Sequence record: MT446387.1
DNA length: 64,000 bases
Direction: 5' to 3' (one strand)
From: Escherichia phage TH09
The position numbers and the translations under genes were made by a program. The notes under the pieces are model-generated. The model saw nothing but the letters and a program-made list of their open reading frames with translations. It made no database searches and had not been told where the DNA came from. This document shows positions 1,242 to 60,278 of this stretch, piece after piece. The stretch's first letter is position 1, and the number at the start of each line of letters is the position of its first letter.

Positions 1242-1266
1242 GGGAGCCTTCGGGCTCCCTTTTTTA
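1242..1266 (+). terminator. rho-independent terminator
   Basis: GGGAGCC-ttcg-GGCTCCC hairpin followed by T-run. Confidence 0.6.
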
Positions 1267-1267
1267 T

Positions 1268-1325
1268 TTCAAAAATTTTTCACAAAACTGTTTACAAGCA
1301 TAAAGCTTTATGGTACTATACAACT
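1268..1325 (+). promoter_or_regulatory. T4-type early promoter
   Basis: AT-rich upstream element, GTTTACA (1290-1296), spacer, TGGTACTATA extended -10. Confidence 0.6.
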
Positions 1326-1357
1326 ATCAAAACAAATGAGTAAATTGGAGATACAAA

Positions 1358-1558
1358 ATGACTACTTTGAATAAACGTTTCGGTAAAGCTAAATCTGGGT
1401 GTGCAGCTGAACGTCGTTATGTTTTCGCTCAGTTAGAAGATGTAGAGTATCAGATTAATCAAGTTCACATTACTGGTATCGAGCCTATGTGTGGCCTTGA
1501 AGCTCTTCGTGAAGTTCGTGACGGGTATCGTCGTGCCATCGAAGAAATGTCAAAATAA
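1358..1558 (+). CDS. hypothetical protein
   Basis: 66 aa ORF with GGAG SD 8 nt upstream. Confidence 0.5.
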   Translation: MTTLNKRFGKAKSGCAAERRYVFAQLEDVEYQINQVHITGIEPMCGLEALREVRDGYRRAIEEMSK

Positions 1559-1615
1559 GTATACAAACTGATAGGACTATGTTATAGTAGTCCTATCAAA
1601 TCAAAGGAGAATAAA

Positions 1616-2584
1616 ATGAAAACTGTAACTATCAATAAGGGTATCTACTTCGGTAAAGAAATCTCTGGAACTTTTGAGCTCTTAGGTGAATGGTTCCCAG
1701 ATAATGCTCCGGTGGATGCACAAGGAGATGGTAAAGTTTTTGTTGAAATTGACGGTAAGCGTCGCGGTGTTTGGGTTTACAAATCAGACATTTCATATGA
1801 TGGTGTAAAAGTTGAAGAAGTTAAAGAATCATATGAAGATATGAAAACCCGCATTAATAAAAGATTTAATGTTATGGGAATGATGACGAATGGTATTATT
1901 AACGGAAACATTCGTTCATTAATTATCTCTGGTGCGGCAGGCATTGGTAAAACGTATTCTTTAGATAAAGCTTTAAATAAAGCAAATGATATTGGATACA
2001 TTGAATATAAAAGCATTAACGGTAAAATCTCTGGTATCGGTCTTTATGAACAGCTCTGGAATAATCGTGAAGAGAATTCTGTCCTTTTGATTGATGATGT
2101 GGATGTTTTCTCTGATATGGACATTCTTAATCTTTTGAAAGCTGCTCTGGACACTGGAGAGACCCGTAAAGTCTGCTGGAGCACTGCATCTTCTTACTTA
2201 GAAGAAAAAGGCATTGAGCGTGAGTTTGAATTTAAAGGAACGATTGTTTTTATCACAAACGTTGACATTGACCGCGAATTAGACCGTGGTACTAAACTTG
2301 CTCCACATTTACAAGCATTAGTTTCCCGCTCGGTTTATTTAGATTTGGGTGTTCACACTAATGAAGAAATTATGGTCAGGGTTGAAGATGTTATTCTTTC
2401 AACCGACATGATGCAAAAGCGTGGTCTTTCTGATGAAGAAACTTATAAAGCATTATCATGGATGAAAGTCAATGTTAATCGTTTACGCAATGTTTCACTG
2501 CGTACTGCTCTTTATCTTGCTGACTTTATTATGACCGACAAAAATGGTTGGGAAGAAATTGCTGAGGTTACTCTTCTGAAATAA
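1616..2584 (+). CDS. AAA+/P-loop ATPase, function unknown
   Basis: 322 aa; Walker A GAAGIGKT, Walker B LLIDDVD, sensor-1-like FITN; AAGGAG SD. Confidence 0.65.
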   Translation: MKTVTINKGIYFGKEISGTFELLGEWFPDNAPVDAQGDGKVFVEIDGKRRGVWVYKSDISYDGVKVEEVKESYEDMKTRINKRFNVMGMMTNGIINGNIRSLIISGAAGIGKTYSLDKALNKANDIGYIEYKSINGKISGIGLYEQLWNNREENSVLLIDDVDVFSDMDILNLLKAALDTGETRKVCWSTASSYLEEKGIEREFEFKGTIVFITNVDIDRELDRGTKLAPHLQALVSRSVYLDLGVHTNEEIMVRVEDVILSTDMMQKRGLSDEETYKALSWMKVNVNRLRNVSLRTALYLADFIMTDKNGWEEIAEVTLLK

Positions 2585-2685: not shown

Positions 2686-2988
2686 ATGTTATACTCAAAG
2701 GCTCGTGAAATTTACGAAACTAAAATTAAAGAAGCAGTATTTCAGTTCGCAACAACGATGCGATGGACAAATGATTGGGAATACTCCAAGAATCATAAGA
2801 AGCCCTTGGTGACAAGAAAGGCTCATATGTTAGTGTTAATAGACCGTGAGCAGATTAAAGCCCGAGAAGCCCTCCAGAATCATAAAAAGGCTGCCTTTGA
2901 ATGGTTTATGGATAACACTGCTCCTGAGACTAAGAAAGCAGTGAGTGCGTGGTTCAGTGGAAAAAATTGTGAAAGAAGTTTCTTTTAG
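2686..2988 (+). CDS. hypothetical protein
   Basis: Track ORF 2674-2988; GGAGG SD favours ATG at 2686. Confidence 0.45.
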   Translation: MLYSKAREIYETKIKEAVFQFATTMRWTNDWEYSKNHKKPLVTRKAHMLVLIDREQIKAREALQNHKKAAFEWFMDNTAPETKKAVSAWFSGKNCERSFF

Positions 2989-3030
2989 TTGTTTACAATA
3001 CCGTTCCTCTGTGGTACTATACAACTATCA
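2975..3030 (+). promoter_or_regulatory. T4-type early promoter
   Basis: GTTTACA 2991-2997, TGGTACTAT -10 region; near-identical to cassette at 56060-56112. Confidence 0.6.
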
Positions 3031-3048
3031 ACTACGGAGGAACACAAA

Positions 3049-3576
3049 ATGAACGCTAAAGATATTTTCAACCTGGTAAATTACAACGATGGTAAATTTA
3101 AATCAGAAGCACAAAGCAAGTTCTTTAATGACATCTCAATTGGAGGTGAAATCACTGTTGATGGAGGACAAATTTACAAATCCCGTTGGAATTGGATCGT
3201 TATTATTGACGAGATCGGTATTGTAGAAATTTACAAGAATACGAATAAAAATCGTACATTACACTGGTCTCGTGATACTAACGAACAGTACAAAAAGGAT
3301 AAAGCATCTAAATTATCTCGTGTAACTCAAGAAGATATTGAGTTCATCAAGAAAGATATTTTGATGTATGATAACTTAATTGCTGAAGAGCAAGCTGTTA
3401 TTGATAAATTTGACGAGATTAAAGCTTCTCGTGAAATTCCTGATTTTATGAAAGAATCAGTAAATGAACGATACAATCTCATTTCAGAGCGTATTGAAAC
3501 TTACAAAAAGCAAAGAGCTGAACGCCAGAACACTCTTCGGAAGTTTGAAGAACGGTTAAAGACGGTACTCGCATAA
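3049..3576 (+). CDS. hypothetical protein with C-terminal coiled coil
   Basis: Track ORF starts inside promoter; ACGGAGG SD places start at 3049; heptad-like C-terminus. Confidence 0.55.
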   Translation: MNAKDIFNLVNYNDGKFKSEAQSKFFNDISIGGEITVDGGQIYKSRWNWIVIIDEIGIVEIYKNTNKNRTLHWSRDTNEQYKKDKASKLSRVTQEDIEFIKKDILMYDNLIAEEQAVIDKFDEIKASREIPDFMKESVNERYNLISERIETYKKQRAERQNTLRKFEERLKTVLA

Positions 3577-10745: not shown

Positions 10746-12559
10746 CAATTGAAAAAGAAATTGAAGGATTGATTCATAAAACTAATAAAGACCTTTTAAA
10801 CGAGAATGCTAATAAAGATTCTCGTGTTTTTCCAACTCAACGGGACCTTATGGCTGGTATTGTGTCTAAACACATTGCCAAAAATATGGTCCCGTCTTTT
10901 ATTATGAAAGCGCATGAAAGCGGAATTATTCATTTCCATGATATTGATTATTCCCCTGCTCTTCCATTTACTAATTGTTGTTTAGTAGATTTAAAAGGAA
11001 TGCTTGAGAACGGATTTAAGCTTGGCAATGCGCAGATTGAAACTCCTAAATCAATTGGCGTTGCTACTGCAATTATGGCACAAATTACTGCGCAAGTTGC
11101 TTCCCATCAATATGGCGGAACGACTTTTGCGAATGTAGATAAAGTACTTTCTCCTTATGTTAAACGCACCTATGCAAAACATATTGAGGATGCAGAAAAA
11201 TGGCAAATCGCTGATGCGTTGAATTATGCTCAATCTAAAACAGAAAAAGACGTATACGATGCATTCCAAGCTTATGAATATGAAGTAAATACTCTCTTTA
11301 GTTCAAACGGACAAACACCTTTTGTAACAATTACATTTGGTACAGGAACTGACTGGACTGAACGAATGATTCAGAAAGCAATTCTGAAAAATCGTATTAA
11401 AGGTCTCGGTCGTGATGGGATAACTCCTATTTTCCCTAAGCTTGTTATGTTCGTTGAAGAAGGTGTTAATCTTTACAAAGACGATCCGAACTATGATATT
11501 AAACAGCTTGCTCTAGAGTGCGCAAGCAAAAGGATGTATCCTGATATTATTTCAGCTAAGAACAATAAAGCTATCACCGGCTCATCTATTCCTGTTTCTC
11601 CAATGGGTTGTCGTAGTTTCTTGAGCGTATGGAAAGATTCGACTGGCAATGAAATTCTTGATGGACGTAATAATCTCGGTGTTGTAACACTGAATCTTCC
11701 TCGTATCGCGTTAGATTCTTATATTGGAACACAATTCAATGAACAGAAATTTGTTGAATTGTTCAATGAACGAATGGATTTATGTTTTGAAGCATTGATG
11801 TGTAGAATTAGTTCCTTAAAAGGAGTTAAAGCGACTGTTGCTCCTATTCTTTACCAAGAAGGTGCATTCGGGGTTCGTCTTAAACCTGATGACGATATAA
11901 TTGAGTTATTTAAAAATGGCAGAAGTTCAGTGTCTCTAGGATACATTGGTATTCACGAATTGAATATTCTTGTCGGTCGTGATATTGGACAAGAAATTTT
12001 AACTAAAATGAATGCTCATCTTAAGCAGTGGACTGAAAGAACTGGGTTTGCTTTTAGTTTATATTCGACTCCTGCTGAAAACCTTTGTTATCGCTTCTGT
12101 AAACTTGATACAGAAAAATATGGAAGCGTAAAAGATGTTACTGATAAAGGCTGGTACACTAATAGTTTCCATGTTTCAGTAGAAGAAAATATTACTCCGT
12201 TTGAAAAGATTTCTCGTGAAGCGCCATATCATTTCATTGCGACAGGTGGTCACATTTCTTATGTTGAACTTCCTGATATGAAAAATAATCTAAAAGGTCT
12301 TGAGGCCGTATGGGATTATGCTGCACAGCATTTAGATTATTTTGGTGTTAACATGCCAGTAGATAAGTGTTTTACATGCGGAAGTACTCATGAAATGACT
12401 CCTACTGAAAACGGATTTGTTTGTTCTATCTGTGGAGAAACTGATCCTAAAAAGATGAACACAATAAGAAGAACATGTGGTTATTTGGGAAATCCGAACG
12501 AACGCGGATTTAATCTTGGCAAAAATAAAGAAATCATGCATAGGGTTAAACACCAATGA
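10742..12559 (+). CDS. nrdD: anaerobic ribonucleoside-triphosphate reductase
   Basis: 605 aa continuous ORF, no intron; glycyl-radical C-terminus and CxxC cluster. Confidence 0.95.
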   Translation: MTIEKEIEGLIHKTNKDLLNENANKDSRVFPTQRDLMAGIVSKHIAKNMVPSFIMKAHESGIIHFHDIDYSPALPFTNCCLVDLKGMLENGFKLGNAQIETPKSIGVATAIMAQITAQVASHQYGGTTFANVDKVLSPYVKRTYAKHIEDAEKWQIADALNYAQSKTEKDVYDAFQAYEYEVNTLFSSNGQTPFVTITFGTGTDWTERMIQKAILKNRIKGLGRDGITPIFPKLVMFVEEGVNLYKDDPNYDIKQLALECASKRMYPDIISAKNNKAITGSSIPVSPMGCRSFLSVWKDSTGNEILDGRNNLGVVTLNLPRIALDSYIGTQFNEQKFVELFNERMDLCFEALMCRISSLKGVKATVAPILYQEGAFGVRLKPDDDIIELFKNGRSSVSLGYIGIHELNILVGRDIGQEILTKMNAHLKQWTERTGFAFSLYSTPAENLCYRFCKLDTEKYGSVKDVTDKGWYTNSFHVSVEENITPFEKISREAPYHFIATGGHISYVELPDMKNNLKGLEAVWDYAAQHLDYFGVNMPVDKCFTCGSTHEMTPTENGFVCSICGETDPKKMNTIRRTCGYLGNPNERGFNLGKNKEIMHRVKHQ

Positions 12560-13026
12560 ATTATGATAGATTTTATCCTTGCGATTTTGTTAATGGCCCT
12601 GGTTGCAGGGTCGTTCTTTTCGTTACAGGTTGTTTGCATAAATGCGAAGGGTGTTATAATAAATCAACATGGAATGCTAGAAATGGTATTCCATTCACTG
12701 GAGAGACACTAGAGCAATTAATTGAATGTTTGAATAATGATTATATAGAAGGATTAACTATAACTGGGGGTGACCCTCTTTATCCTGATAACAGAGATGT
12801 GATTCATTGCATTGTTCAAACAGTAAAAAATCTTTATCCCAATAAAAGCATTTGGTTGTGGACAGGATATAAATTTGAAGATATTAAACAACTAGAAATG
12901 CTTAAATATGTTGATGTTATTATTGATGGGAAGTATGAGAAAAATCTTCCGACCAAAAAGCTGTGGCGAGGATCAGATAATCAGCGACTTTGGTCAAATA
13001 CCGATGGGGTGTGGAAACATGATTAA
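12556..13026 (+). CDS. nrdG: anaerobic RNR activating enzyme (radical SAM)
   Basis: 156 aa; CxxxCxxC motif (CLHKCEGC); overlaps nrdD stop. Confidence 0.9.
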   Translation: MNYDRFYPCDFVNGPGCRVVLFVTGCLHKCEGCYNKSTWNARNGIPFTGETLEQLIECLNNDYIEGLTITGGDPLYPDNRDVIHCIVQTVKNLYPNKSIWLWTGYKFEDIKQLEMLKYVDVIIDGKYEKNLPTKKLWRGSDNQRLWSNTDGVWKHD

Positions 13027-14631: not shown

Positions 14632-14650
14632 GGGCTTCGGCCCTTTTTGG
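14632..14650 (+). terminator. rho-independent terminator
   Basis: GGGCTTCGGCCC hairpin plus TTTTT. Confidence 0.6.
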
Positions 14651-17045: not shown

Positions 17046-17066
17046 CCAAAACAAAGAGGATATTAA

Positions 17067-18269
17067 ATGAAAGTATGTATTTTTATGGCTCGAGGTCTTG
17101 AAGGTTGTGGTGTAACAAAATTCTCACTCGAGCAACGTGATTGGTTTATTAAAAATGGTCATGAAGTAACTTTGGTTTATGCTAAAGATAAATCATTTAC
17201 TCGTAATTGCGCGCATGATTATAAATCATTTTCAATTCCGGTTTTATTGGCAAAAGAATATGATAAAACACTTAAGCTGGTAAATGATTGTGATATTCTA
17301 ATTATCAATTCGGTTCCTGCTACTTCGGTTGAAGAAGACACGATTAATAACTATAAAAAAATTATTGATAACATTAAACCTTCTGTTCGTGTTGTAGTTT
17401 ATCAACATGACCATTCTTCTCTTTCTTTGCGTCGAAATTTGGGATTAGAAGAAACTGTTCGTCGAGCTGATGTTATTTTTAGCCATTCTGATAATGGTGA
17501 TTTTAATAAAGTTCTGATGAAAGAGTGGTATCCTGAAACAGTTTCTCTGTTTGATGATATTGAAGAAGCGCCGACAGTATATAACTTTCAGCCTCCGATG
17601 GATATTGCGAAGGTTCGATCAACCTACTGGAAAGATGTTTCTGAAATTAACATGAATATCAACCGTTGGATTGGTCGTACTACTACATGGAAAGGTTTTT
17701 ATCAGATGTTTGATTTTCATGAAAAACATCTTAAACCTGCAGGACTAAGTACTATTATGGAAGGTCTGGAACGTTCTCCAGCGTTTATTCCTATTAAAGA
17801 AAAAGGAATTCCATACGAGTATTATCGTCTTCATCAAGTAGACCAAATTAAAATTGCTCCTAATTTGCCAACGCAAATTCTTGACCGTTATGTAAATAGC
17901 GAAATGCTTGAACGCATGAGTAAATCCGGTTTTGGTTATCAGTTGAGTAAGTTGGATAAAAAATATCTACAACGTTCTTTAGAATATACTCATCTCGAGC
18001 TTGGTGCATGTGGAACAATTCCGGTATTTTGGAAATCTACTGGCGAAAATTTAAAATTCCGTGTTGATAATAATCCTTTGACCTCGCATGATAGCGGTAT
18101 CATTTGGTTTGATGAAAATGACATGGAATCAACATTTGAACATATTAAAGAACTGTCATCTGACCGAGCTCTTTATGACCGTGAGCGAGAAAAAGCATAT
18201 GAATTTTTGTATCAGCATCAAGATTCAAGCTTCTGCTTTAAAGAACAGTTTGACATTATTACAAAATAA
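17067..18269 (+). CDS. a-gt: DNA alpha-glucosyltransferase
   Basis: 400 aa; recognised as T4 a-gt. Confidence 0.95.
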   Translation: MKVCIFMARGLEGCGVTKFSLEQRDWFIKNGHEVTLVYAKDKSFTRNCAHDYKSFSIPVLLAKEYDKTLKLVNDCDILIINSVPATSVEEDTINNYKKIIDNIKPSVRVVVYQHDHSSLSLRRNLGLEETVRRADVIFSHSDNGDFNKVLMKEWYPETVSLFDDIEEAPTVYNFQPPMDIAKVRSTYWKDVSEINMNINRWIGRTTTWKGFYQMFDFHEKHLKPAGLSTIMEGLERSPAFIPIKEKGIPYEYYRLHQVDQIKIAPNLPTQILDRYVNSEMLERMSKSGFGYQLSKLDKKYLQRSLEYTHLELGACGTIPVFWKSTGENLKFRVDNNPLTSHDSGIIWFDENDMESTFEHIKELSSDRALYDREREKAYEFLYQHQDSSFCFKEQFDIITK

Positions 18270-22996: not shown

Positions 22997-23027
22997 TAAT
23001 TTACACTAAAACTTGAATGAGGAAATT

Positions 23028-23987
23028 ATGATTACCGTAAATGAAAAAGAACACATTCTTGAACAGAAATATCGTCCATCTACTATCGATGAATGTATTC
23101 TTCCCGCCTTTGATAAAGAAACCTTTAAATCTATTACAAGTAAAGGTAAGATTCCACATATTATTCTTCATTCTCCTTCTCCAGGAACAGGTAAAACAAC
23201 TGTAGCAAAAGCATTGTGTCATGATGTAAATGCTGATATGATGTTTGTGAATGGATCAGATTGTAAAATTGATTTCGTTCGTGGTCCTTTGACTAATTTT
23301 GCCAGCGCCGCTTCATTTGATGGTCGTCAAAAAGTAATCGTTATTGATGAATTTGACCGCTCAGGATTAGCAGAGTCTCAGCGACATCTTCGTTCCTTTA
23401 TGGAAGCTTATAGTTCAAACTGTAGTATTATTATTACTGCTAACAATATTGATGGTATTATTAAACCGCTTCAGTCACGCTGTCGAGTTATTACATTCGG
23501 TCAACCAACTGATGAAGATAAAATTGAAATGATGAAGCAGATGATTCGTCGATTGACTGAAATCTGCAAGCATGAAGGAATTGCTATAGCTGATATGAAA
23601 GTTGTAGCAGCTTTGGTTAAAAAGAATTTTCCTGATTTTCGTAAAACTATTGGCGAGCTCGATAGTTATTCATCTAAAGGTGTTTTGGATGCTGGTATTT
23701 TATCACTGGTTACTAACGATCGTGGTGCTATTGATGATGTTCTTGAGTCTCTCAAAAATAAAGGTGTTAAACAACTCAGAGCTTTAGCACCAAAATATGC
23801 AGCTGATTATTCGTGGTTCGTGGGTAAACTTGCCGAAGAAATCTATTCACGTGTAACTCCGCAAAGTATTATTCGTATGTACGAAATTGTTGGCGAAAAT
23901 AATCAGTATCATGGTATTGCAGCTAATACTGAGTTACATTTAGCATATCTTTTCATTCAATTGGCATGCGAAATGCAGTGGAAGTGA
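23028..23987 (+). CDS. 44: clamp loader large subunit gp44
   Basis: 319 aa from ATG 23028 (GAGGAAATT SD); Walker A GTGKTT. Confidence 0.95.
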
Positions 23988-27709: not shown

Positions 27710-27732
27710 AGGGACCTCCGGGTCCCTTTTTC
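27710..27732 (+). terminator. rho-independent terminator
   Basis: GGGACC-tccg-GGTCCC plus TTTTT. Confidence 0.6.
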
Positions 27733-27794
27733 ATACAAGTAATATAAATCTATACTTATGAAAAACAGATGATTCTGGACCTTTAGAATTCCCT

Positions 27795-27850
27795 AAAAAA
27801 TTTTCACAAAACTGTTTACAAGACTGTTCTTCCATGGTACTATACAACTA
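27795..27850 (+). promoter_or_regulatory. T4-type early promoter
   Basis: GTTTACA 27814-27820, TGGTACTATA -10. Confidence 0.6.
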
Positions 27851-27880
27851 TCAACTATTGATACAGATTTGGAGAATAAA

Positions 27881-28117
27881 ATGAAAATTGTTATGGGATG
27901 CTTAGCAGTTTGTTTAGTTGCATTAGCAGCAGTTCCATTTGTTAGTGTTGAAAATGATACTCAACCTGTGATTGAATCTAGCACCGTTATTCACACTAAT
28001 GGTAAAATATCAGTTAAAATTGATGATAATCTTCATGTGAATACAAATGGATCTTTAGGTGTGCAAATGGGTAATACCTGCATAAGCACTACTGGAGTAA
28101 TTACTACTTGCATTTGA
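27881..28117 (+). CDS. secreted small protein (signal peptide)
   Basis: 78 aa from ATG 27881; hydrophobic N-terminal leader. Confidence 0.5.
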   Translation: MKIVMGCLAVCLVALAAVPFVSVENDTQPVIESSTVIHTNGKISVKIDDNLHVNTNGSLGVQMGNTCISTTGVITTCI

Positions 28118-28920: not shown

Positions 28921-29661
28921 ATGATTAGTGACTCTATGACAGTTGAAGAAATCCGTCTTCATTTGGGGCTTGCATTAAAAGAAAAAGATTTCGTAGTTGA
29001 TAAAACTGGTGTTAAAACTATTGAAATTATTGGCGCATCATTTATAGCAGATGAACCGTTTATTTTTGGCGCTCTTAATGATGAATACATTCAGCGTGAA
29101 CTTGAATGGTATAAATCTAAGAGCTTGTTTGTTAAAGATATTCCAGGTGAAACACCAAAGATTTGGCAGCAGGTAGCATCTTCTAAAGGCGAAATTAACT
29201 CGAATTACGGTTGGGCTATTTGGTCAGAAGATAACTATGCCCAGTATGATATGTGTTTAGCTGAACTTGGTCAAAATCCTGATTCTCGACGTGGTATCAT
29301 GATTTATACTCGTCCATCTATGCAGTTTGACTATAATAAAGATGGTATGTCAGATTTCATGTGTACGAATACAGTACAGTACCTGATTCGTGATAAGAAA
29401 GTCAATGCAGTAGTAAGCATGCGCTCAAATGATGTGGTCTTCGGATTCCGTAATGATTATGCATGGCAAAAATACGTATTAGATAAATTAGTATCTGATT
29501 TGAATGCCGGCGATTCAACTCGTCAGTATAAAGCAGGTTCTATTATATGGAATGTTGGAAGTCTTCATGTATATTCTCGTCATTTTTACTTGGTTGATCA
29601 TTGGTGGAATACTGGCGAAACTCATATTGTGAAAAAAGACTATAAAGGTGAGTGGAAATGA
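28921..29661 (+). CDS. 42: dCMP hydroxymethylase gp42
   Basis: 246 aa; recognised as T4 gp42. Confidence 0.95.
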   Translation: MISDSMTVEEIRLHLGLALKEKDFVVDKTGVKTIEIIGASFIADEPFIFGALNDEYIQRELEWYKSKSLFVKDIPGETPKIWQQVASSKGEINSNYGWAIWSEDNYAQYDMCLAELGQNPDSRRGIMIYTRPSMQFDYNKDGMSDFMCTNTVQYLIRDKKVNAVVSMRSNDVVFGFRNDYAWQKYVLDKLVSDLNAGDSTRQYKAGSIIWNVGSLHVYSRHFYLVDHWWNTGETHIVKKDYKGEWK

Positions 29662-30500
29662 TTCAATTCGTAATTCCGAGCTATCAGCGTGTTGGGGCAG
29701 TTTCTGCCCTTGATATGTTTCCGACTGATTATGAACCACATATTGTAGTGCGTGAACATGAAGAAAAAGCTTATCATGACGCTTATGGGTCTAGAGCTAA
29801 AATTATAGCTATTCCTGATGATGTAAACGGAATTGCCGGTACTCGTAAAGCAATTACTGATATGTATGCAGGTCAACGAATTTGGATGATTGACGATGAT
29901 ACTACTATTCGTATGAGTTCAATGCGAAAAAGAGATGATCGTCGTTGTGTGGATAAAGTCAATCAATTAACCCGTGAACAGTTCTATGAATTGATTCAAT
30001 ACGTTGAAGATGCTATGGATTGCGGGTATTATCACGGTCATGCTCGTCTACCTATTTTTAAAATTACTTCATCTTGGGGTAATTATCGTGAAAATTCATA
30101 TGGATTCACGAATACATGGTATGACCTCGGAAAACTTACGACAGAACAAATTGGGTATGGAAAAATTGATTTGTGCGAAGATATGTATGCATTTCTCAAT
30201 TTAATTAATCAAGGTTATCCGCATTTGGCCTTGTTCAAATATCTGGTTGTATCTGGAAAAGCACAAGCTCCTGGCGGGTGCAGTTCAATTCGCAGTAATT
30301 CTAAACATAATAGAGCGCTTGAGCAGATCAATAGAGAGTTTCCAGAGCAAGCTCGTTGGAAAACTTCTAATATTGAAAAACGAAAATCGTTGGGTGAAGA
30401 AGACGAGCCATTAAAGGTTCTTCGTATGTGTGTTTCACGTAAAGAAAAATCAGAAGCATTTCATAAGTTTAATGCTATTCATCCAATAGCAGTTGATTAA
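29658..30500 (+). CDS. putative DNA glycosyltransferase at the beta-gt locus (not T4 beta-gt type)
   Basis: 280 aa from ATG 29658; DxD-like WMIDDDTT; sits between 42 and uvsX. Confidence 0.55.
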   Translation: MIQFVIPSYQRVGAVSALDMFPTDYEPHIVVREHEEKAYHDAYGSRAKIIAIPDDVNGIAGTRKAITDMYAGQRIWMIDDDTTIRMSSMRKRDDRRCVDKVNQLTREQFYELIQYVEDAMDCGYYHGHARLPIFKITSSWGNYRENSYGFTNTWYDLGKLTTEQIGYGKIDLCEDMYAFLNLINQGYPHLALFKYLVVSGKAQAPGGCSSIRSNSKHNRALEQINREFPEQARWKTSNIEKRKSLGEEDEPLKVLRMCVSRKEKSEAFHKFNAIHPIAVD

Positions 30501-30577
30501 TGCCTAAATTTATTGTGTTATAATTACTCTATCTTTAACCAGTGAGGAAAATATAATGATGCCTATGGAAAAAATGA

Positions 30578-31759
30578 ATGTCTATTGCAGATTTAAAATC
30601 CCGTTTGATTAAAGCTTCCACTTCTAAAATGACTGCTGAACTGACTACATCTAAATTCTTTAATGAAAAGGATGTAATCCGTACAAAAATCCCAATGCTT
30701 AATATTGCTATTTCTGGCGCGATTGATGGCGGTATGCAGTCTGGTTTAACTATTTTCGCAGGGCCTTCTAAACACTTTAAATCAAATATGTCTTTAACTA
30801 TGGTTGCGGCATATTTGAACAAATATCCTGACGCAGTTTGTCTATTCTATGATAGCGAATTTGGTATTACTCCAGCTTATTTGCGATCCATGGGAGTTGA
30901 CCCGGAACGAGTAATTCATACGCCAATTCAGTCAGTTGAACAGCTGAAAATTGATATGGTGAACCAACTTGAAGCTATTGAGCGTGGTGAAAAGGTTATT
31001 GTATTCATCGACTCAATTGGTAATATGGCTTCTAAGAAAGAAACTGAAGATGCCTTGAATGAAAAATCTGTGGCAGATATGACTCGTGCTAAATCACTGA
31101 AGTCATTATTCCGTATTGTTACTCCTTACTTTAGCATTAAAAATATTCCATGTGTTGCGGTTAACCATACAATTGAAACAATTGAAATGTTTAGTAAAAC
31201 CGTGATGACAGGTGGTACAGGCGTAATGTATTCGGCTGATACCGTATTCATTATCGGTAAACGTCAGATTAAAGATGGTTCTGATCTTCAGGGGTATCAA
31301 TTTGTTCTAAATGTAGAAAAATCTCGTACCGTTAAAGAAAAAAGTAAATTCTTTATTGATGTTAAATTTGACGGTGGTATCGATCCTTATTCTGGATTGT
31401 TAGATATGGCTCTAGAATTAGGATTTGTTGTAAAACCTAAAAATGGCTGGTATGCTCGTGAATTTCTTGACGAAGAAACTGGCGAGATGATTCGCGAAGA
31501 AAAATCTTGGCGTGCAAAAGATACCAACTGCACTACATTCTGGGGTCCTTTATTTAAGCATCAACCGTTCCGAGATGCTATTAAACGTGCTTATCAGTTA
31601 GGTGCTATTGATAGTAATGAAATTGTTGAAGCTGAAGTTGATGAATTAATTAACTCAAAAGTTGAAAAATTTAAATCTCCAGAAAGTAAAAGTAAATCAG
31701 CTGCTGATTTAGAAACTGACTTAGAACAGTTAAGTGATATGGAAGAATTTAATGAATAA
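30578..31759 (+). CDS. uvsX: RecA-like recombinase UvsX
   Basis: 393 aa; Walker A GPSKHFKS; recognised as T4 UvsX. Confidence 0.95.
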   Translation: MSIADLKSRLIKASTSKMTAELTTSKFFNEKDVIRTKIPMLNIAISGAIDGGMQSGLTIFAGPSKHFKSNMSLTMVAAYLNKYPDAVCLFYDSEFGITPAYLRSMGVDPERVIHTPIQSVEQLKIDMVNQLEAIERGEKVIVFIDSIGNMASKKETEDALNEKSVADMTRAKSLKSLFRIVTPYFSIKNIPCVAVNHTIETIEMFSKTVMTGGTGVMYSADTVFIIGKRQIKDGSDLQGYQFVLNVEKSRTVKEKSKFFIDVKFDGGIDPYSGLLDMALELGFVVKPKNGWYAREFLDEETGEMIREEKSWRAKDTNCTTFWGPLFKHQPFRDAIKRAYQLGAIDSNEIVEAEVDELINSKVEKFKSPESKSKSAADLETDLEQLSDMEEFNE

Positions 31760-34388: not shown

Positions 34389-35021
34389 ATGATTTATTAT
34401 ATGCACAAAAATCCACCGTTTAAATACGGTAAATTTCCTGATGCACAATGTTATAATATAACGCCTGATGAAAATAACCGTGGATATCTTATTGGCACAA
34501 TTTTTGTAATTGTTAAAGATAACGAAATCGTTGCCTGGGCAGATTTTAAAGGTACAACATATGATGTTAATCCGGTGCCTTTCACATATTACAATTTAAT
34601 GGATTTGGCATACGATTATAATTGGTTTAATCATGACACTTTGGCTCATATTGAAGGTGTAGGATTTGATATTTCATATTCGGAATACACTTTAAGCCCT
34701 ATGAGTCGAGCCCATAAAGAACCTGAATATTTTTCATTTAGGAAACGTGTAAACTTTAAACGCAGCACAGAGTATGTCGGTGGAATATTTGTTAAAGATA
34801 ATCGAATTACTCGCATTATTTATCCTTTGGGCTGTGGTCAAAAAGATATTGATGTTAATTTAGACTTTACTGAAAACATCATTAATCATATTGCTTCTGT
34901 GTATTTTGGTATCGATCACAAAATTGTAATATGTGGATATGAATTACCGTTTGAAGAACAGCCTAAAGTAAAAGTTTCTATTGACGATCAAATTTTTAAT
35001 GCTTTTATGAATAAAGGTTAA
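34389..35021 (+). CDS. hypothetical protein
   Basis: 210 aa; C-terminal SIDDQIFNAFMNKG shared with next ORF. Confidence 0.55.
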   Translation: MIYYMHKNPPFKYGKFPDAQCYNITPDENNRGYLIGTIFVIVKDNEIVAWADFKGTTYDVNPVPFTYYNLMDLAYDYNWFNHDTLAHIEGVGFDISYSEYTLSPMSRAHKEPEYFSFRKRVNFKRSTEYVGGIFVKDNRITRIIYPLGCGQKDIDVNLDFTENIINHIASVYFGIDHKIVICGYELPFEEQPKVKVSIDDQIFNAFMNKG

Positions 35022-35025
35022 TATG
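34977..35025 (+). repeat. 49-bp direct repeat, copy A
   Basis: 46/49 identical to 35335-35383; covers last 14 codons, stop, SD and next ATG. Confidence 0.8.
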
Positions 35026-35379
35026 TATAGTTCTGAATTTTCATATTTAAAAATGGAAAAAATTTCATACGATTTTATAGATGAAAAGGTTTATTACAGT
35101 TTCCATGAACCGCGTTTTAATAGTGAGGTTGGGTTTATTGTAGTAAAAGACAATTTCATTTTAAAGATATATTCGGCATTAAAGGATTTTCACTATGAAA
35201 ATATTAACCTAAAATTTGATAAAGAAAACGTTCGTAATTGTGCAGTAACAATTACAGGAAATAAAGGTACGTGTGTTATGCTATCTGATGAAATTAATGA
35301 TTTGCTAAATGATGCAGAAAATATTACTGCGCCATCTATTGATGACCAAATTTTTAATGCTTTTATGAATAGAGGTTAA
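35023..35379 (+). CDS. hypothetical protein
   Basis: 118 aa; C-terminal SIDDQIFNAFMNRG. Confidence 0.55.
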   Translation: MYSSEFSYLKMEKISYDFIDEKVYYSFHEPRFNSEVGFIVVKDNFILKIYSALKDFHYENINLKFDKENVRNCAVTITGNKGTCVMLSDEINDLLNDAENITAPSIDDQIFNAFMNRG

Positions 35380-35383
35380 TATG
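35335..35383 (+). repeat. 49-bp direct repeat, copy B
   Basis: See copy A. Confidence 0.8.
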
Positions 35384-36783: not shown

Positions 36784-36812
36784 TATTGCTTTATATATTT
36801 ATTGTATAATTA
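36784..36812 (+). promoter_or_regulatory. putative MotA-dependent middle promoter for gene 56
   Basis: MotA box TTGCTTTA 36786-36793, TATAAT 36805-36810. Confidence 0.4.
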
Positions 36813-36844
36813 ATCTACTAACCCATGAATTGAAAGGAAAAATA

Positions 36845-37363
36845 ATGGCTTACTTTAATGAATGTTCACAACTGATCGAAGGCGCTGATAAAGCTCAAAA
36901 TGAATACTGGGATATTCTCGGTGATGAAAAAGACCCGCTGCAGGTTATGCTTGATATGCAGAAATCTCTGCAGGTTCGTTTAGCTAAAGATAAACCTGAA
37001 TATAACCGTCATCCTGATGATTTGGCTACTGCAGGTGAAGTTGTTGATTGGCTGCGCAATCAGAAAGATTATATTGATGATGAATTCCGCGAACTTCTGA
37101 CTTCTCTTGGTGGTATGAGCAATGGTGAAAAAGATGCATCTGCTGTATGGAAGCCATGGAAAGCTCAACATGGTGAACGTCGTGAAACTCTGATTACTGA
37201 TTTGTCTCCACAAGACCAGTTGGAAATTAAATTCGAAATGATTGATATTCTTCATTTCGTTCTGAACATGTTCCAAGGTCTCGGTCTTACGGCTGAAGAA
37301 ATCTTTAAACTTTATTATCTGAAAAATGCTGAAAACTTCGCTCGCCAAGACCGAGGTTACTAA
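36845..37363 (+). CDS. 56: dCTPase/dUTPase gp56
   Basis: 172 aa from ATG 36845 (GAAAGGAAAA SD); recognised as T4 gp56. Confidence 0.9.
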   Translation: MAYFNECSQLIEGADKAQNEYWDILGDEKDPLQVMLDMQKSLQVRLAKDKPEYNRHPDDLATAGEVVDWLRNQKDYIDDEFRELLTSLGGMSNGEKDASAVWKPWKAQHGERRETLITDLSPQDQLEIKFEMIDILHFVLNMFQGLGLTAEEIFKLYYLKNAENFARQDRGY

Positions 37364-37563
37364 TGGCTCGTTTAAATAAACGACAGCTTAAGAAAGCCCA
37401 CAAGAAACATATTGACCAGCTATTTAAAAATTATGACAAGGAGCTCGTATGTGAGCTCTTATCTAATCAGCTTCGTGTGGTTGATTGGGTTGTAGAAGAA
37501 GGTCCTGATGAAATTTTTGTCAGTGAAGAAGCTTTAAAATTAATTATAGAGCATTCAAAATGA
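37363..37563 (+). CDS. hypothetical protein
   Basis: 66 aa. Confidence 0.45.
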   Translation: MARLNKRQLKKAHKKHIDQLFKNYDKELVCELLSNQLRVVDWVVEEGPDEIFVSEEALKLIIEHSK

Positions 37564-37733
37564 AAATATCCAAAGAAGAATTTATTAGACGACAAAAAGC
37601 TTTAATTAATTTACACGAGTGGTATGCTTATCAGCTTAAAGTAGATAGCTCTAATATAAATGCTGTAATGGCTTTATATAAACAAATTCATGATGAACAC
37701 GAATTCCTAGCACAAGTTTTCATTGAAGACTGA
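37560..37733 (+). CDS. small hypothetical protein
   Basis: 57-codon ORF; ATGA overlap. Confidence 0.3.
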   Translation: MKISKEEFIRRQKALINLHEWYAYQLKVDSSNINAVMALYKQIHDEHEFLAQVFIED

Positions 37734-37741
37734 TATAAATA
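37734..37741 (+). promoter_or_regulatory. late promoter for soc
   Basis: Exact TATAAATA about 30 bp upstream of soc. Confidence 0.5.
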
Positions 37742-37772
37742 CACCTGTAATTAAACAATAAAGGAGTTTATT

Positions 37773-38009
37773 ATGGGTGGTTTCGTTAACATCAAGACCT
37801 TTACTCATCCAGCGGGTGAAGGCAAAGAAGTTAAAGGTATGGAAGTTTCTGTAGCATTTGATGTATATTCAAATGAACACCGTATCGCAGATTCTCATTA
37901 TCAAATCTTTCCGTCAGAAAAAGCAGCTTATTCTGATGTAGTTTCCGATGCAGCAACTTGGAAAACTAAGAATGCTGCAATGTTTACGCCTACAGAAATA
38001 GGTGGTTAA
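37773..38009 (+). CDS. soc: small outer capsid protein Soc
   Basis: 78 aa; recognised as T4 Soc-like. Confidence 0.85.
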   Translation: MGGFVNIKTFTHPAGEGKEVKGMEVSVAFDVYSNEHRIADSHYQIFPSEKAAYSDVVSDAATWKTKNAAMFTPTEIGG

Positions 38010-45400: not shown

Positions 45401-45420
45401 TAGCTACTGAGGATAATAAA

Positions 45421-46415: not shown

Positions 46416-46453
46416 TGCGGAGTATAAATCTTAACAACAAAGAGAGAAAAATT

Positions 46454-47356: not shown

Positions 47357-47384
47357 ATTTGCATAAAGTTTAAAATTTTTTCAT

Positions 47385-47425
47385 AAAACTATATACATCA
47401 GTAGTTGATTATGGTACTATATCAA
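47385..47425 (+). promoter_or_regulatory. possible early promoter
   Basis: TGGTACTAT -10 at 47412-47420 but poor -35. Confidence 0.35.
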
Positions 47426-47463
47426 TATCAACTACTGATACAGAAAATAACTTGGAGAATAAA

Positions 47464-47733
47464 ATGGAAAACTTAATTATCATCGAGCAATCTTTTAACG
47501 ATTATGGTATGGCTTACGGTTATCGTGCGATAATGGAAGATTCTCGTGGATGTGTTATCGATATTGCTGAATGTAAAGATTTACTGCAGCTTTTGAAGAT
47601 TGTTCGTAAAAATTGGGATTGTGAAAATATTAAAGTTCGAGTTGTTACAGAAGAAGAAACTGTTTTTCATGATGTAAAATTCGCTAAAGGTGCTGCTACT
47701 CTTCTGAAACGTATCGCTCCAATGTTTAATTAA
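47464..47733 (+). CDS. hypothetical protein
   Basis: 89 aa from ATG 47464 (GGAGAATAAA SD). Confidence 0.5.
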   Translation: MENLIIIEQSFNDYGMAYGYRAIMEDSRGCVIDIAECKDLLQLLKIVRKNWDCENIKVRVVTEEETVFHDVKFAKGAATLLKRIAPMFN

Positions 47734-51146: not shown

Positions 51147-51350
51147 ATGAAATCATATAGAGTAAATTTAGAACTTTTTGATAAAGCAGTTCATCGAGAA
51201 TATAGAATCATTCAACGCTTTTTCGATATGGGAGAAGCCGAAGAATTTAAAAACCGCTTTAAGGATATTAGAGATAAAATTCAATCCGACACTGCAACTA
51301 AAGATGAACTACTAGAAGTTGCTGAAGTTATTAAGCGTAATATGAATTAA
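51147..51350 (+). CDS. hypothetical protein
   Basis: 67 aa upstream of rIIA. Confidence 0.5.
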
Positions 51351-51360
51351 TGAGGAAATT

Positions 51361-54775: not shown

Positions 54776-55333
54776 ATGCAGAAAACGAATCCGGGTTTAC
54801 AGAGACTATTTCAGATTCCGACATTTACCCTATCGAACAATGACTTGACTAGTGAAATGAAGGTCAAAATTGCTGATACAGCAAGATACTCTTTAAAACA
54901 AAATCCTAATCAGGATAAAGCAGAAGTCATCGAAAGATGCCGTATCGCTGTGTATGCAGAGTTTTTTGTAGCAGATTGGCTGAGCGGGTATGTTAACAAA
55001 GGCCAAGAGGATGTTAATGACCCGTATACATACGCATGGGATGTATTGGCGCATCCAAGATATTGCGGGCTTCGTGTAGAAGTTAAGACACACCAAACTG
55101 ACTCACGTTGGATTTCGGTAACAACTGGATGCAGCGGAGAATATCCATACGGTTCTGGAATAAATCTAGGGCCCATTCTGAATCACCAAGTCGCTGACTG
55201 TATAATTATATTCAACACTAAAGAAATTCATCCAGGTGTCATCCAATACACTCCGAAGTTCATCGGTGATAGAGAAGACCTTCGTAAAGTTGTAAGAAAA
55301 AGCAACTACAACGGATGGTATCTTTCCATTTAA
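54776..55333 (+). CDS. denB: endonuclease IV DenB
   Basis: 185 aa; size and position match T4 denB. Confidence 0.8.
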   Translation: MQKTNPGLQRLFQIPTFTLSNNDLTSEMKVKIADTARYSLKQNPNQDKAEVIERCRIAVYAEFFVADWLSGYVNKGQEDVNDPYTYAWDVLAHPRYCGLRVEVKTHQTDSRWISVTTGCSGEYPYGSGINLGPILNHQVADCIIIFNTKEIHPGVIQYTPKFIGDREDLRKVVRKSNYNGWYLSI

Positions 55334-55334
55334 A

Positions 55335-55388
55335 AATTTTCACAAAACGGTTTACATACCACAAGGACTGTGGTACTATACAACTATC
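55335..55388 (+). promoter_or_regulatory. T4-type early promoter
   Basis: GTTTACA 55350-55356, TGTGGTACTATA -10. Confidence 0.6.
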
Positions 55389-55413
55389 AACTGATACGGA
55401 TTTGGAGAATAAA

Positions 55414-55620
55414 ATGTTTACTACAGCTGAATTAAAACGAGCAAAAGCTAAGAAAGGGCAAGGAAAATATAAAGCTGAATTAGTTAAAGAACTTCAGTTT
55501 GCTGAGGCTGAATTGAATTCAATGATTATTCAAAATGCTCCAGAAACTGAAATTGCTCTTAAGCGTATTGCGAATAAGTGTCTTCGTGATGCAATCGTCG
55601 ATCTTTTAGCGGATTATTGA
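55414..55620 (+). CDS. hypothetical protein
   Basis: 68 aa from ATG 55414 (GGAGAATAAA SD). Confidence 0.5.
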   Translation: MFTTAELKRAKAKKGQGKYKAELVKELQFAEAELNSMIIQNAPETEIALKRIANKCLRDAIVDLLADY

Positions 55621-55625
55621 GTAAA

Positions 55626-55889
55626 ATGAAATTTAAATTTTATTACGCTAAACATAAAATAACTGATGAGTTTGTGTCAGTTGAATATTCTAGCGATGAT
55701 GAAGGTATGATTTATACTCGCTTGGGACTATCGCATTGGGAGTCTGATACGCCTTATTTTTCAACTCCTGAAGAAATTACACGTTTAGTTAATGGTCATA
55801 TGAATGACCACTGGAATGTAATTCTTTCAGATAGTCTTAAAGCGGCTATTAATAGTAATGAAATGAAAATCGCTGAGATTGAACTATGA
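55626..55889 (+). CDS. hypothetical protein
   Basis: 87 aa from ATG 55626. Confidence 0.45.
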   Translation: MKFKFYYAKHKITDEFVSVEYSSDDEGMIYTRLGLSHWESDTPYFSTPEEITRLVNGHMNDHWNVILSDSLKAAINSNEMKIAEIEL

Positions 55890-55972: not shown

Positions 55973-56067
55973 AAATTTTGAATTCTGTACTTATTGCTTG
56001 TGCATGGTGGGTTGCGCAAGTTTCAGCGGTAGTAGTTGGTATTCACATTTATTACGAATATTTTTAA
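55969..56067 (+). CDS. tiny hydrophobic ORF
   Basis: 32 codons, single TM-like segment. Confidence 0.3.
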   Translation: MKILNSVLIACAWWVAQVSAVVVGIHIYYEYF

Positions 56068-56112
56068 AAAAGTTGTTTACAAGACTGTTCCTCTGTGGTA
56101 CTATTACCCTAT
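56060..56112 (+). promoter_or_regulatory. T4-type early promoter
   Basis: GTTTACA 56075-56081, TGTGGTACTATTA -10; cassette similar to 2975-3051. Confidence 0.6.
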
Positions 56113-56132
56113 CAACTACGGAGGAACAGAAA

Positions 56133-56246
56133 ATGAAAAAGATTATTAAAGCTATATGGAATGTAGTTATAATACTAATAGTTTTGAGTATATTCCCAAT
56201 CGTTTTAATGATTGATGTATTAAACGCTTACTTTGGATTTATGTGA
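56133..56246 (+). CDS. small membrane protein
   Basis: 37 aa from ATG 56133 (ACGGAGG SD). Confidence 0.4.
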   Translation: MKKIIKAIWNVVIILIVLSIFPIVLMIDVLNAYFGFM

Positions 56247-59520: not shown

Positions 59521-59548
59521 AGGGAGAGCCAAGGCTCTCCCTTTTTAT
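59521..59548 (+). terminator. rho-independent terminator
   Basis: GGGAGAGCC-aa-GGCTCTCCC plus TTTTT. Confidence 0.65.
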
Positions 59549-59554
59549 TTTAAA

Positions 59555-59608
59555 ATTTTTTTCACAAAACGGTTTACAACCAAAGCATACTGTGGTACTA
59601 TACAACTA
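59555..59608 (+). promoter_or_regulatory. T4-type early promoter
   Basis: GTTTACA 59572-59578, TGTGGTACTATA -10. Confidence 0.6.
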
Positions 59609-59642
59609 TCAACTGCTGATACAGAATTACGGAGATTAGAAA

Positions 59643-60278
59643 ATGTCTAAAGTAACTTACATCATCAAAGCTTCTAACGATGTTCTGAATGAAAAAACTG
59701 CTGCGATTTTAATTACCATTGCTAAGAAAGATTTCATTACAGCTGCAGAAGTTCGTGAGGTGCATCCAGATTTAGGTAACGCAGTAGTTAATAGTAATAT
59801 TGGTGTATTGATTAAAAAGGGCCTGGTAGAGAAATCTGGTGATGGATTAATCATTACTGGTGAAGCTCAGGATATTATTTCAAACGCAGCAACTTTATAC
59901 GCACAGGAAAATGCTCCGGAACTGCTGAAAAAACGAGCAACTCGTAAATCTCGTGAGATTACTTCTGATATGGAAGAAGATAAAGACTTCATGTTAAAAC
60001 TTTTAGATGAAAATGGATTTGTTCTTAAAAAGGTTGAAACTTATCGCAGTAACTATCTCGCTATTTTAGAAAAACGCACTCACGGAATTCGTAATTTTGA
60101 AATTAACAACAATGGAAATATGCGAATTTTTGGATACAAAATGATGGAACATCATATTCAGAAATTTACTGACATCGGTATGTCATGCAAAATCGCTAAA
60201 AATGGTAATGTGTATCTTGACATTAAACGCTCGGCAGAAAACATTGAAGCTGTAATCACCGTAGCATCTGAACTGTGA
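59643..60278 (+). CDS. motA: middle-transcription activator MotA
   Basis: 211 aa; recognised as T4 MotA. Confidence 0.95.
   Translation: MSKVTYIIKASNDVLNEKTAAILITIAKKDFITAAEVREVHPDLGNAVVNSNIGVLIKKGLVEKSGDGLIITGEAQDIISNAATLYAQENAPELLKKRATRKSREITSDMEEDKDFMLKLLDENGFVLKKVETYRSNYLAILEKRTHGIRNFEINNNGNMRIFGYKMMEHHIQKFTDIGMSCKIAKNGNVYLDIKRSAENIEAVITVASEL

Follow-up and report, generated by a model that had tools for sequence, protein, structure and literature searches.

Why do near-identical promoter and leader sequences recur in front of unrelated small genes, and do such repeats impose a common control and act as points of genome rearrangement? The question is raised by the 64,000-nucleotide stretch of Escherichia phage TH09 DNA (MT446387.1) analysed here (the window). 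It comes from a T4-like Tequatrovirus, and its genes follow the order of the T4 early region (nrdC.11 ... 49, nrdD, 55, 47, 46, 45, 44, 62, regA, 43, imm, 42, uvsX, 41, 61, 56, modA/B, dda, dexA, motB, cef, 39, rIIA, rIIB, denB, ndd.x, 52, motA, asiA), on the opposite strand relative to the T4 record; the G+C content is 34.5%. Over a 4-kb stretch around the repeat first noted, Escherichia phage JLBYU31 (Tequatrovirus) reaches 100% identity, and hundreds of T4-like phages show ~98% identity to the same stretch. The regB gene lies outside the window; JLBYU31, whose identity to the window is 100% in the stretches compared, served as a stand-in for it, and its product matches T4 RegB at 152/153 positions.

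Taken as a whole, the repeats are very probably T-even immediate-early cassettes, subject to RegB shut-off and to PeSL shuffling. The finding is in this sense already known, for T4 early promoters (PMC2988021), for RegB (PMC1702504, PMC3014915) and for PeSLs (PMC2839356, PMC4122927). The window provides base-level examples of this biology, namely a cassette interrupted by an ORF, a locus whose alleles carry two ORFs, one or none, hybrid leaders and a module common to another genus, and these are usable as annotation landmarks or teaching cases, leaving existing knowledge unchanged.

One promoter core with exchangeable leaders

Seven copies of the cassette are present on the + strand of the window (Table 1). 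The 21-mer TGGTACTATACAACTATCAAC is found without mismatch at 3012, 27835, 55371 and 59593, with one mismatch at 1311 and with three at 47412, and these six matches compare with 0.00 expected from 100 dinucleotide shuffles; the seventh copy, at 56096, differs from the 21-mer at four positions, all of them in the four bases after the -10. A repeat search sorts the copies into families of 59-87 nt, and a 7-way alignment gives a mean column identity of 72% over 116 columns, with invariant columns extending from the UP element through the -35, TGGTACTAT and TATCAA to AAAATG. The similarity passes the start site into the leader, and therefore cannot be reduced to the promoter hexamers only. The repeats are real, lie statistically far beyond chance, and are functionally well explained.

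Table 1. Coordinates of the cassettes and of the inserted open reading frames in the window.
Feature	Span	Strand	Elements
Cassette 1, after nrdC.11	1242..1360	+	terminator-like hairpin GGGAGCC-TTCG-GGCTCCC + T-run 1242-1267; UP element; -35 TTTACA 1291-1296; TGGTACTAT 1311-1319; CTATCAA to 1330; foreign leader AACAAATGAG..GGAGATACAAA; ATG 1358 of inserted 66-aa ORF
Inserted 66-aa ORFan (ORF66)	1358..1558	+	absent from T4
Degenerate second cassette, detached 3' half	1559..1618	+	TATACA-18-TATAGT; CTATCAA; GGAGAATAAAA 1606-1616, abutting nrdC.10 ATG at 1616
Cassette 2, type 2, nrdC.8	2973..3051	+	-35 2992-2997; hairpin arms 3003-3015 / 3031-3043, SD GGAGG in 3' arm; TGGTACTAT 3012-3020; ATG 3049
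Cassette 3, after gene 43	27711..27883	+	terminator-like hairpin 27711-27731; UP element; -35 27815-27820; TGGTACTAT 27835-27843; core to 27855; RegB/S1 consensus GGAGAATAAAA 27871-27881; ATG 27881
Inserted 78-aa ORFan, between cassette 3 and imm.1	27881..28117	+	absent in T4, RB32
Cassette 4, after motB, upstream of cef	47363..47466	+	weak -35 TATACA 47392-47397; hairpin arms 47397-47409 / 47427-47439 around TGGTACTAT 47412-47420; GGAGAATAAAA 47454-47464; ATG 47464
Cassette 5, after denB	55332..55416	+	UP element; -35 55351-55356; TGGTACTAT 55371-55379; GGAGAATAAAA 55404-55414; ATG 55414
Two ORFans behind cassette 5, variably present	55414..55889	+	68 aa 55414-55620; 87 aa 55626-55889
Cassette 6, type 2, ndd.4	56057..56135	+	-35 56076-56081; hairpin arms 56085-56099 / 56115-56129, SD GGAGG in 3' arm; TGGTACTAT 56096-56104; ATG 56133
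Cassette 7, motA promoter	59521..59645	+	terminator-like hairpin 59521-59542; UP element; -35 59573-59578; TGGTACTAT 59593-59601; SD GGAG 59631-59634 (GGAGATTAGAA); MotA ATG 59643

The preliminary description placed type-1 cassettes at 27835-27883, 47412-47466 and 55370-55416 and type-2 cassettes at 2988-3051 and 56072-56135, in each case accurately to within 1 nt, and it rightly saw conservation reaching beyond the promoter hexamers, through the leader to the start codon. It did not list two further full copies (-35 elements at 1291 and 59573, the latter belonging to the motA promoter), the 3' half-cassette that stands detached before nrdC.10, or the inverted repeat inside the type-2 cassette. 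That the genes behind the cassettes are unrelated is borne out, as BLASTP among all pairs of downstream proteins gives no significant similarity and Pfam recognises only MotA among the downstream ORFs. The separation into two cassette types does not survive: types 1 and 2 are a single promoter core carrying interchangeable leader modules, which occur as hybrids in relatives.

Each cassette has the order A/T-rich UP element, -35, extended -10 TGGTACTAT, start-site block CTATCAAC, leader, GGAG SD and ATG. The -35 GTTTACA is followed by 14 variable bases and then TGGTACTAT in six of the seven copies, the copy at 47392 having TATACA. TGGTACTAT itself comprises the TGn and the -10 TACTAT, such that the promoter spacer is 17 nt, and either ACAA or TACC fills the four bases between the -10 and CTATCAAC. 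The UP block AAAAATTTTTCACAAAAC is found in five copies, with A/T-rich variants at 2973 and 56057. We assumed a start site 7 nt past the -10, which makes the A of ATCAAC the first transcribed base and would give leaders of 22-37 nt. In metagenomic T4-like contigs (C/A/T)TATCAA keeps a constant distance from the -10 amid varied spacers and leaders, and it is therefore a signal of the promoter or start site rather than of leader function.

Reviews of T4 early promoters describe the UP, -35, TGn and -10 elements together with further consensus regions (PMC2988021; PMC1524935). The window copies resemble these promoters (Hinton 2010, PMC2988021; Nolan 2006, PMC1524935) in the UP element, the GTTTAC -35, the 17-nt spacer and the TGn-extended -10, and the likeness includes the extra consensus past the hexamers, as well as early-gene location and orientation. 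A -35 GTTTAC(A/T), a spacer of 17±1 nt and a TGn with -10 TAnnnT are found together in 6/7 copies, and the A/T-rich UP element lies at about -40 to -60. Nothing essential differs from the T4 promoters, the window copies forming a subclass with -10 TACTAT and (ACAA)CTATCAAC; of the ~16 promoters of early type that can be made out in the window, seven belong to this TGGTACTAT/CTATCAAC subclass. The T4 genome has the identical 21-nt core at seven orthologous promoters, before ndd.6, motA (P(motA)), e.8, nrdC.10, nrdC.8, imm.1 and cef. From these T4 orthologues and the published work on P(motA) we infer that the cassettes are T-even immediate-early host sigma-70 promoters and that they fire in this phage. 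The combination of UP element, -35 GTTTACA, 17-nt spacer, TGn -10 and CTATCAAC would make a very strong host sigma-70 promoter, which host RNA polymerase would fire upon infection.

A probable RegB target in the leader

RegB, activated by ribosomal protein S1, requires a single-stranded site of 11 nt, for which GGAGAAUAAAA is the optimum and GGAGRAYARAA the general form (Durand, PMC1702504). The type-1 leader has a conserved 3' block, TTGGAGAATAAAATG, and its 3' end GGAGAATAAAA(TG) is exactly the published optimal RegB/S1 target. We judged enrichment by counting exact matches to the consensus in the window and in the T4 genome. GGAGRAYARAA has four matches in the window against 0.49 expected, a count that 0/100 shuffles reached, and each of the four is GGAGAATAAAA, lies on the + strand and has as its last base the A of the start codon (1606, 27871, 47454 and 55404). 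The whole T4 genome contains eight such sites, every one on the early-transcribed strand and at a translation start. The remaining cassettes have the SD variants GGAGATTAGAA (motA), GGAGATACAAA (1347) and GGAGGAACAC/G (type 2). The C residues of the type-2 site GGAGGAACACA/G are in keeping with the moderate cleavage of T4 nrdC.8 by RegB reported in PMC1702504, and the SD of T4 motA is likewise cleaved (PMC2988021, PMC1702504). The GGAU sites of 55.2 and motB.2, also reported cleaved, are present in the window as GGATAATAAAA at 14649 and 45411. When folded from the proposed start, the leaders reach only 0 to -5.1 kcal/mol, with the SD unpaired in five of the seven predicted folds, and this near absence of structure fits the RegB need for a single-stranded site.

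The sites thus share with those of T4 early mRNAs (PMC1702504; Uzan and Miller 2010, PMC3014915) the exact GGAGAAUAAAA at four starts, the GGAGG and GGAGAUUAGAA variants at other cassettes, the intergenic position in early transcripts and the predicted lack of structure. They differ in that the window site is one half of a repeated promoter-leader module, and in that cleavage is here predicted, for the phage and for its inserted ORFans. In the mechanism we propose, the SD lies within the 11-nt RegB/S1 site (GGAGAAUAAAA in type 1, GGAGG in type 2, GGAGAUUAGAA in motA), and RegB, itself an early product, would cut the SD between G and A, so inactivating the mRNA and confining expression to a burst. 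This course of events is read here from the sequence; experiments have demonstrated it for T4 motA and, moderately, for T4 nrdC.8. One compact module would in this way time expression, by a strong promoter followed by RegB shut-off, which is textbook T4 biology in a relative.

The preliminary description suggested shared post-transcriptional control, with RegA among the candidates. Its general part is upheld by the RegB/S1 consensus in the leader, whereas RegA finds no such enrichment. An operator for the RegA translational repressor might be sought in the shared leader given that RegA sites are loosely defined as A/U-rich, unstructured and overlapping the AUG (PMC3014915), which the cassette start AAUAAAAUG resembles, and the ORF at 27881 begins with AAAATTGTTATG, 12/15 nt of the RegA SELEX consensus. 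That consensus, AAAAUUGUUAUGUAA, is however matched in the window only 10 times against 14.3 expected and never in the shared leader, where instead the RegB/S1 site is matched exactly over 11 nt, and the clear RegA-type starts of gene 44 and rIIA (AATGAGGAAATTATGATTA) are unlike those of the cassettes. We accordingly rejected a RegA operator as the main control and consider it distinctly improbable. Still less credible is a type-1 leader that works as a structured cis-regulatory RNA, for example through a 5'-terminal stabilising hairpin UAUCA-loop-UGAUA. An inverted repeat TATCA(A)...(T)TGATA does stand at the proposed 5' end of four copies, but the stability predicted for this hairpin is negligible (-0.6 to -0.8 kcal/mol), it is lost from orthologous leaders such as CTATCAACTAATACGG, an Rfam scan of the window matches no known RNA family, and a structured leader would be at odds with the single-stranded site that RegB requires; the hairpin was discarded. 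GGAGAATAAAA being the exact RegB/S1 target, the sequence points to RegB, and not RegA, as the agent of shared control. Conservation within the genome also takes in the middle of the type-1 leader (ACTACTGATACRGA...), which has indels between orthologues, so part of the type-1 leader similarity may reflect concerted evolution rather than selection.

Gain, loss and exchange of genes at the cassettes

The preliminary description further supposed that the repeats could mediate rearrangement, and in kind this is right. BLAST of the window against T4 gives 17 collinearity breaks, and four of the seven cassettes lie on such breaks, inside the cassette or at its ATG (1330|1606, 27894|28128, 47471|47672 and 55416|55857); the chance that at least 4 of the 17 would fall at these seven junctions is ~0.007-0.03, a rough estimate that considers gene junctions only. 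At the remaining three cassettes the window and T4 differ by no indel. In relatives the cassettes at the breaks show allelic series and hybrid leaders.

At the first break, T4 collinearity ends within cassette 1, at 1330. T4 has one intact cassette before nrdC.10, whereas that of the window is split, its promoter half as far as CTATCAA preceding ORF66 and a degenerate half ending in GGAGAATAAAATG-nrdC.10. A 601-nt ORF66 query is covered to at least 80% in only 55/654 related records, and phage ECML-134 has two other ORFs between two cassettes at this site. The ORF66 module, with CTATCAA on both sides, recurs at ~91% identity in the Mosigvirus TU01, where it has a cassette of its own and adjoins the genes for a nudix hydrolase and lysozyme, which on the T4 map is the e region. 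The position of ORF66 between two cassette motifs is compatible with formation of a mini-circle between neighbouring cassettes. At cassette 3 (27894|28128) the T4 cassette stands directly before imm.1 and the window has the extra 78-aa ORF, an allele found in ~60% of relatives; TadeuszReichstein has a different ORF here and a type-2 leader on the same promoter. Behind cassette 4 (47471|47672) the 200 bp directly after the cassette ATG are missing from T4.

Cassette 5 (55416|55857) displays an allelic series: both ORFs are present in the window, the second alone in GiZh and the first alone in RB32, while T4 lacks the two. In Lutter and TadeuszReichstein the type-1 promoter of this locus is followed by a hybrid leader, CTATCAGCTACGGAGGAGTAAAAATG, and in the ndd.4 cassette of Lutter the discriminator TACC is swapped for ACAA. 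The endpoint of the T4 deletion, 55857-55874 (AATGAAATGAAAATCGCT, 18 nt), is identical to the translation start of T4 imm.1, a match that reads as the footprint of a cassette-to-cassette exchange.

These observations correspond closely to PeSLs, which were first described in RB49/phi1 with experimental evidence for promoter, terminator and mini-circles (Arbiol 2010, PMC2839356) and whose shuffling was extended to the T4/PST pair, including an ndd.4/.5 exchange (Comeau 2014, PMC4122927). The PeSL is the same composite of A/T-rich region, early promoter, stem-loop, SD and start codon, and likewise precedes ORFans in hyperplastic regions that undergo insertion, deletion and replacement between close relatives (PMC2839356, PMC4122927); the ndd region of the window is itself one of the published PST/T4 examples. 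In the window the repeated composite has a stem-loop in six of seven copies, and ORFan indels or replacements between close relatives affect four of the seven cassettes along with the multi-allelic loci. The elements themselves differ, those of RB49/phi1 having near-consensus TTGACA/TATAAT and compact G-run/C-run stem-loops shown to terminate transcription, and those of the window a -35 GTTTAC and a stem-loop that is either a terminator-like hairpin lying upstream or a long-range hairpin that lacks a U-run. Since one module of 50-110 bp stands before many genes that are unrelated, it would serve as a portable patch of homology, which phage recombination would use to insert, delete or swap small ORFs and leader halves as in the PeSL model. 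The module that times expression would then also be the exchange point for gain and loss of small accessory genes.

Two other explanations of these junctions need to be weighed. The similarity could be due solely to selection for a maximal promoter and ribosome-binding site, with indels merely falling at gene boundaries, since the best-conserved blocks (UP, -35, TGn/-10, start site, RegB/SD) are all of known function and the spacers differ, and many other T4 indels are homing-endonuclease genes and introns, not cassettes. We regard this as unlikely, as the junctions at four loci coincide at base level with cassette landmarks (CTATCAA, GGAGAATA, ATG), promoter and leader of different types are joined in hybrid cassettes, the 18-nt identity to the imm.1 start lies at the T4 deletion junction, the ORF66 module appears in another genus with cassette motifs on its flanks, and PeSL mini-circles have been experimentally shown in RB49/phi1 (PMC2839356). 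Alternatively the cassettes might be integron-like sites of site-specific recombination, at which a recombinase recognises the CTATCAAC core or the hairpin that spans the promoter. Arbiol et al. raised a dedicated system as a possibility (PMC2839356), crossovers do cluster in conserved blocks of 7-13 nt, and hairpins lie at the promoters. Against this, no candidate recombinase is known or seen, T4 general recombination works on short homologies, and the junctions vary among CTATCAA, SD and ATG with no single fixed point, and we find the proposal highly improbable. PeSL shuffling by phage recombination is the reading that we retain.

Hairpins across the promoter

In the two type-2 cassettes (2992 and 56076) the promoter spacer (C)TGTTCCTCTGTGGT complements ACTACGGAGGAAC(AG), forming a helix of 13-15 bp, with the -10 and the start site enclosed and the SD in its 3' arm (MFE -21.6 kcal/mol, z -4.9, at 2992; -23.2 kcal/mol, z -4.2, at 56076). 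A further 13-bp helix at 47392 (ATCAGTAGTTGAT/ATCAACTACTGAT, -20.2 kcal/mol, z -4.95) has as its 3' arm the start of the leader, not the SD. A promoter-spanning hairpin was sought in the other four copies and found in none (z between -0.5 and +0.6); three of these have an upstream hairpin resembling an intrinsic terminator (1242, 27711 and 59521), with a T-run that is absent from the promoter-spanning hairpins, and the copy at 55351 has neither form of stem-loop (z -0.49).

The helices of different cassettes differ in sequence, and the pairing of spacer with own leader is stronger than with other leaders, the mean duplex energy being -8.79 versus -6.88 kcal/mol for 15 pairs in the window (p=0.0026) and -8.54 versus -6.62 kcal/mol for 25 pairs in T4 (p=1e-4). 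The effect is carried in the window by 2992, 45365, 47392 and 56076, and in T4 by ndd.4, regB, nrdC.8, denV and motB.2. Among twelve close variants of the type-2 hairpin the changes are all C/U substitutions in one strand opposite G, with no pair altered on both sides, and so give no evidence of covariation, a result that is uninformative rather than negative.

The cassette orthologous to that of nrdC.8 has a stable promoter-overlapping hairpin in three other genera, with different sequences and partners. In Dhakavirus the spacer pairs with the SD through a different sequence, in Mosigvirus it pairs with the -10/discriminator, and in Gaprivervirus TATAAT lies in the hairpin loop and is followed by GGAGAATAAAATG, the SD being outside the hairpin in both of the latter. 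Masking of the SD, which would hold for Tequatrovirus and Dhakavirus and does not for Mosigvirus and Gaprivervirus, was therefore rejected as the conserved function, given that the Mosigvirus hairpin excludes the SD. The conserved property is a stem-loop with its 5' arm upstream of the start site, as in the PeSL stem-loop (PMC2839356).

The type-2 5' arm lies upstream of the start site, so that only read-through RNA can form the hairpin, and in the predicted fold of this RNA the type-2 RegB site is paired. Complementarity of spacer and leader at 2992, 47392 and 56076 would on this basis produce the 13-15 bp hairpin only in RNA reading through from upstream. Insulation of the cassette against upstream transcripts is the most likely role of the hairpin, which in type 2 would also mask the SD/RegB site; SD masking in type-2 read-through RNA is suggested by the modelled folds as a possibility and is not universal. 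We tentatively suggest, as an idea more doubtful than probable, that a subset of T-even early cassettes is self-insulating, the spacer complementing its own leader or SD and hiding SD and RegB site in read-through RNA. This subset would comprise 2992, 45365, 47392 and 56076 in the window and, in T4, also the regB and denV promoters. If it were so, RNA from the cassette's own promoter, started inside the loop, would be open and translated, and then cut by RegB, a scheme known from genes e, soc and 49 and here transferred to early promoters.

We found no self-insulating early cassette described in the T4 reviews consulted, and the window genes do not figure in the published list of hairpin-masked T4 starts, which comprises e, soc, 49 and I-TevI (PMC3014915 section 29). 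Complementarity of spacer and own leader is possibly under-described, and is the only part of our findings that might merit experiment. The listed starts are similar to type 2 in having the SD in the 3' arm and the 5' arm upstream of the start of the proximal promoter (PMC3014915). In those genes, however, the internal promoter is late (or middle) and expression is delayed, whereas in the window the internal promoter is early and the masking is predicted.

Gene content and internal repeats

With T4 as reference, the nrdD intron with I-TevII is missing from the window, as are the genes mobC, mobB, segA, dam and segF and the mobA/60.1/gene-60 insertion, and the beta-glucosyltransferase region is replaced. 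Gene 39 is a single fused 606-aa ORF, and there is therefore no gene-60 bypass in the window.

A perfect tandem duplication of 360 bp lies inside gene 52, which encodes the topoisomerase II medium subunit. It is in-frame, comprising 120 codons, and the gene product is 562 aa long, compared with 442 aa for the T4 protein. With a query of 151 nt spanning the duplication junction, 572 records gave a match, and among the top matches listed it aligned only as two separate pieces; the junction is either unique to this source or an artefact of assembly. In the 61.2 region, a 49-nt direct repeat (94% identity), the copies of which form the ends of two neighbouring ORFs, suggests a partial tandem duplication, and collinearity with T4 is interrupted at this repeat.

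Small-ORF modules at other loci and junctions

The 66-aa ORF, an insert absent from T4, is also carried by Mosigvirus TU01 (MZ560701.1, 2500-2860) with ~91% nucleotide identity. There, in a different genus and at a different locus, upstream of nudix-hydrolase and lysozyme genes, the module includes an early promoter of its own and, trailing the ORF, a half-cassette, i.e. part of the repeated promoter-leader unit. Towards its end, the 87-aa ORF, the second of two ORFans after denB, contains an 18-nt sequence that matches the translation start of T4 imm.1 without a difference; the T4 deletion has its endpoint exactly there.

Translation starts, leaders and terminators

The orthologues of 55.2 and motB.2 both have the motif GGATAATAAAA at their translation starts; these are the sole two GGAU sites for which cleavage by the endoribonuclease RegB has been reported in T4 (PMC1702504). 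In T4 itself (AF158101), the regB, denV and motB.2 early promoters (62796, 65412 and 8217) have spacers between -35 and -10 that complement their own SD regions over 10-15 nt, at -17 to -21 kcal/mol; the denV SD is reported to be RegB-resistant in vivo (PMC1702504). Gene 44, rIIA and a third gene share a translation start, AATGAGGAAATTATGATTA, which resembles the known gene 44 operator of the translational repressor RegA, AAAUUAUGAUU. A second family of early leaders is also present, as are two early promoters with 97% identity over 32 nt, which precede nrdC.4-like and rIIA.1-like genes, and a family of near-identical terminator hairpins with a UUCG tetraloop.

Positions in the window of the features described
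Feature	Position
Gene-content differences from T4	11277/11280, 12556-12576, 17051-17076, 29643-30590, 36784-38003, 50692-50757
Gene 52 ORF	57682-59370
Gene 52 duplication	58094-58813
49-nt repeat copies	34977-35025, 35335-35383
ORFs ending in the repeat	34389-35021, 35023-35379
66-aa ORF	1358-1558
AATGAAATGAAAATCGCT	55857-55874
GGATAATAAAA	14649-14659, 45411-45421
Shared AATGAGGAAATTATGATTA start	23007-23046, 46449-46472, 51349-51394
Second leader family, CTACTGAGGAGATTA..ATG	6009, 34077, 45404
Paired early promoters, GTTTACTTTRCCACAAGGATGTGGTATAAT	5966, 51090
Terminator hairpins, (A)AGGGCTTCGGCCCTT(T)	14630, 18263, 22973, 24920, 49200, 54710
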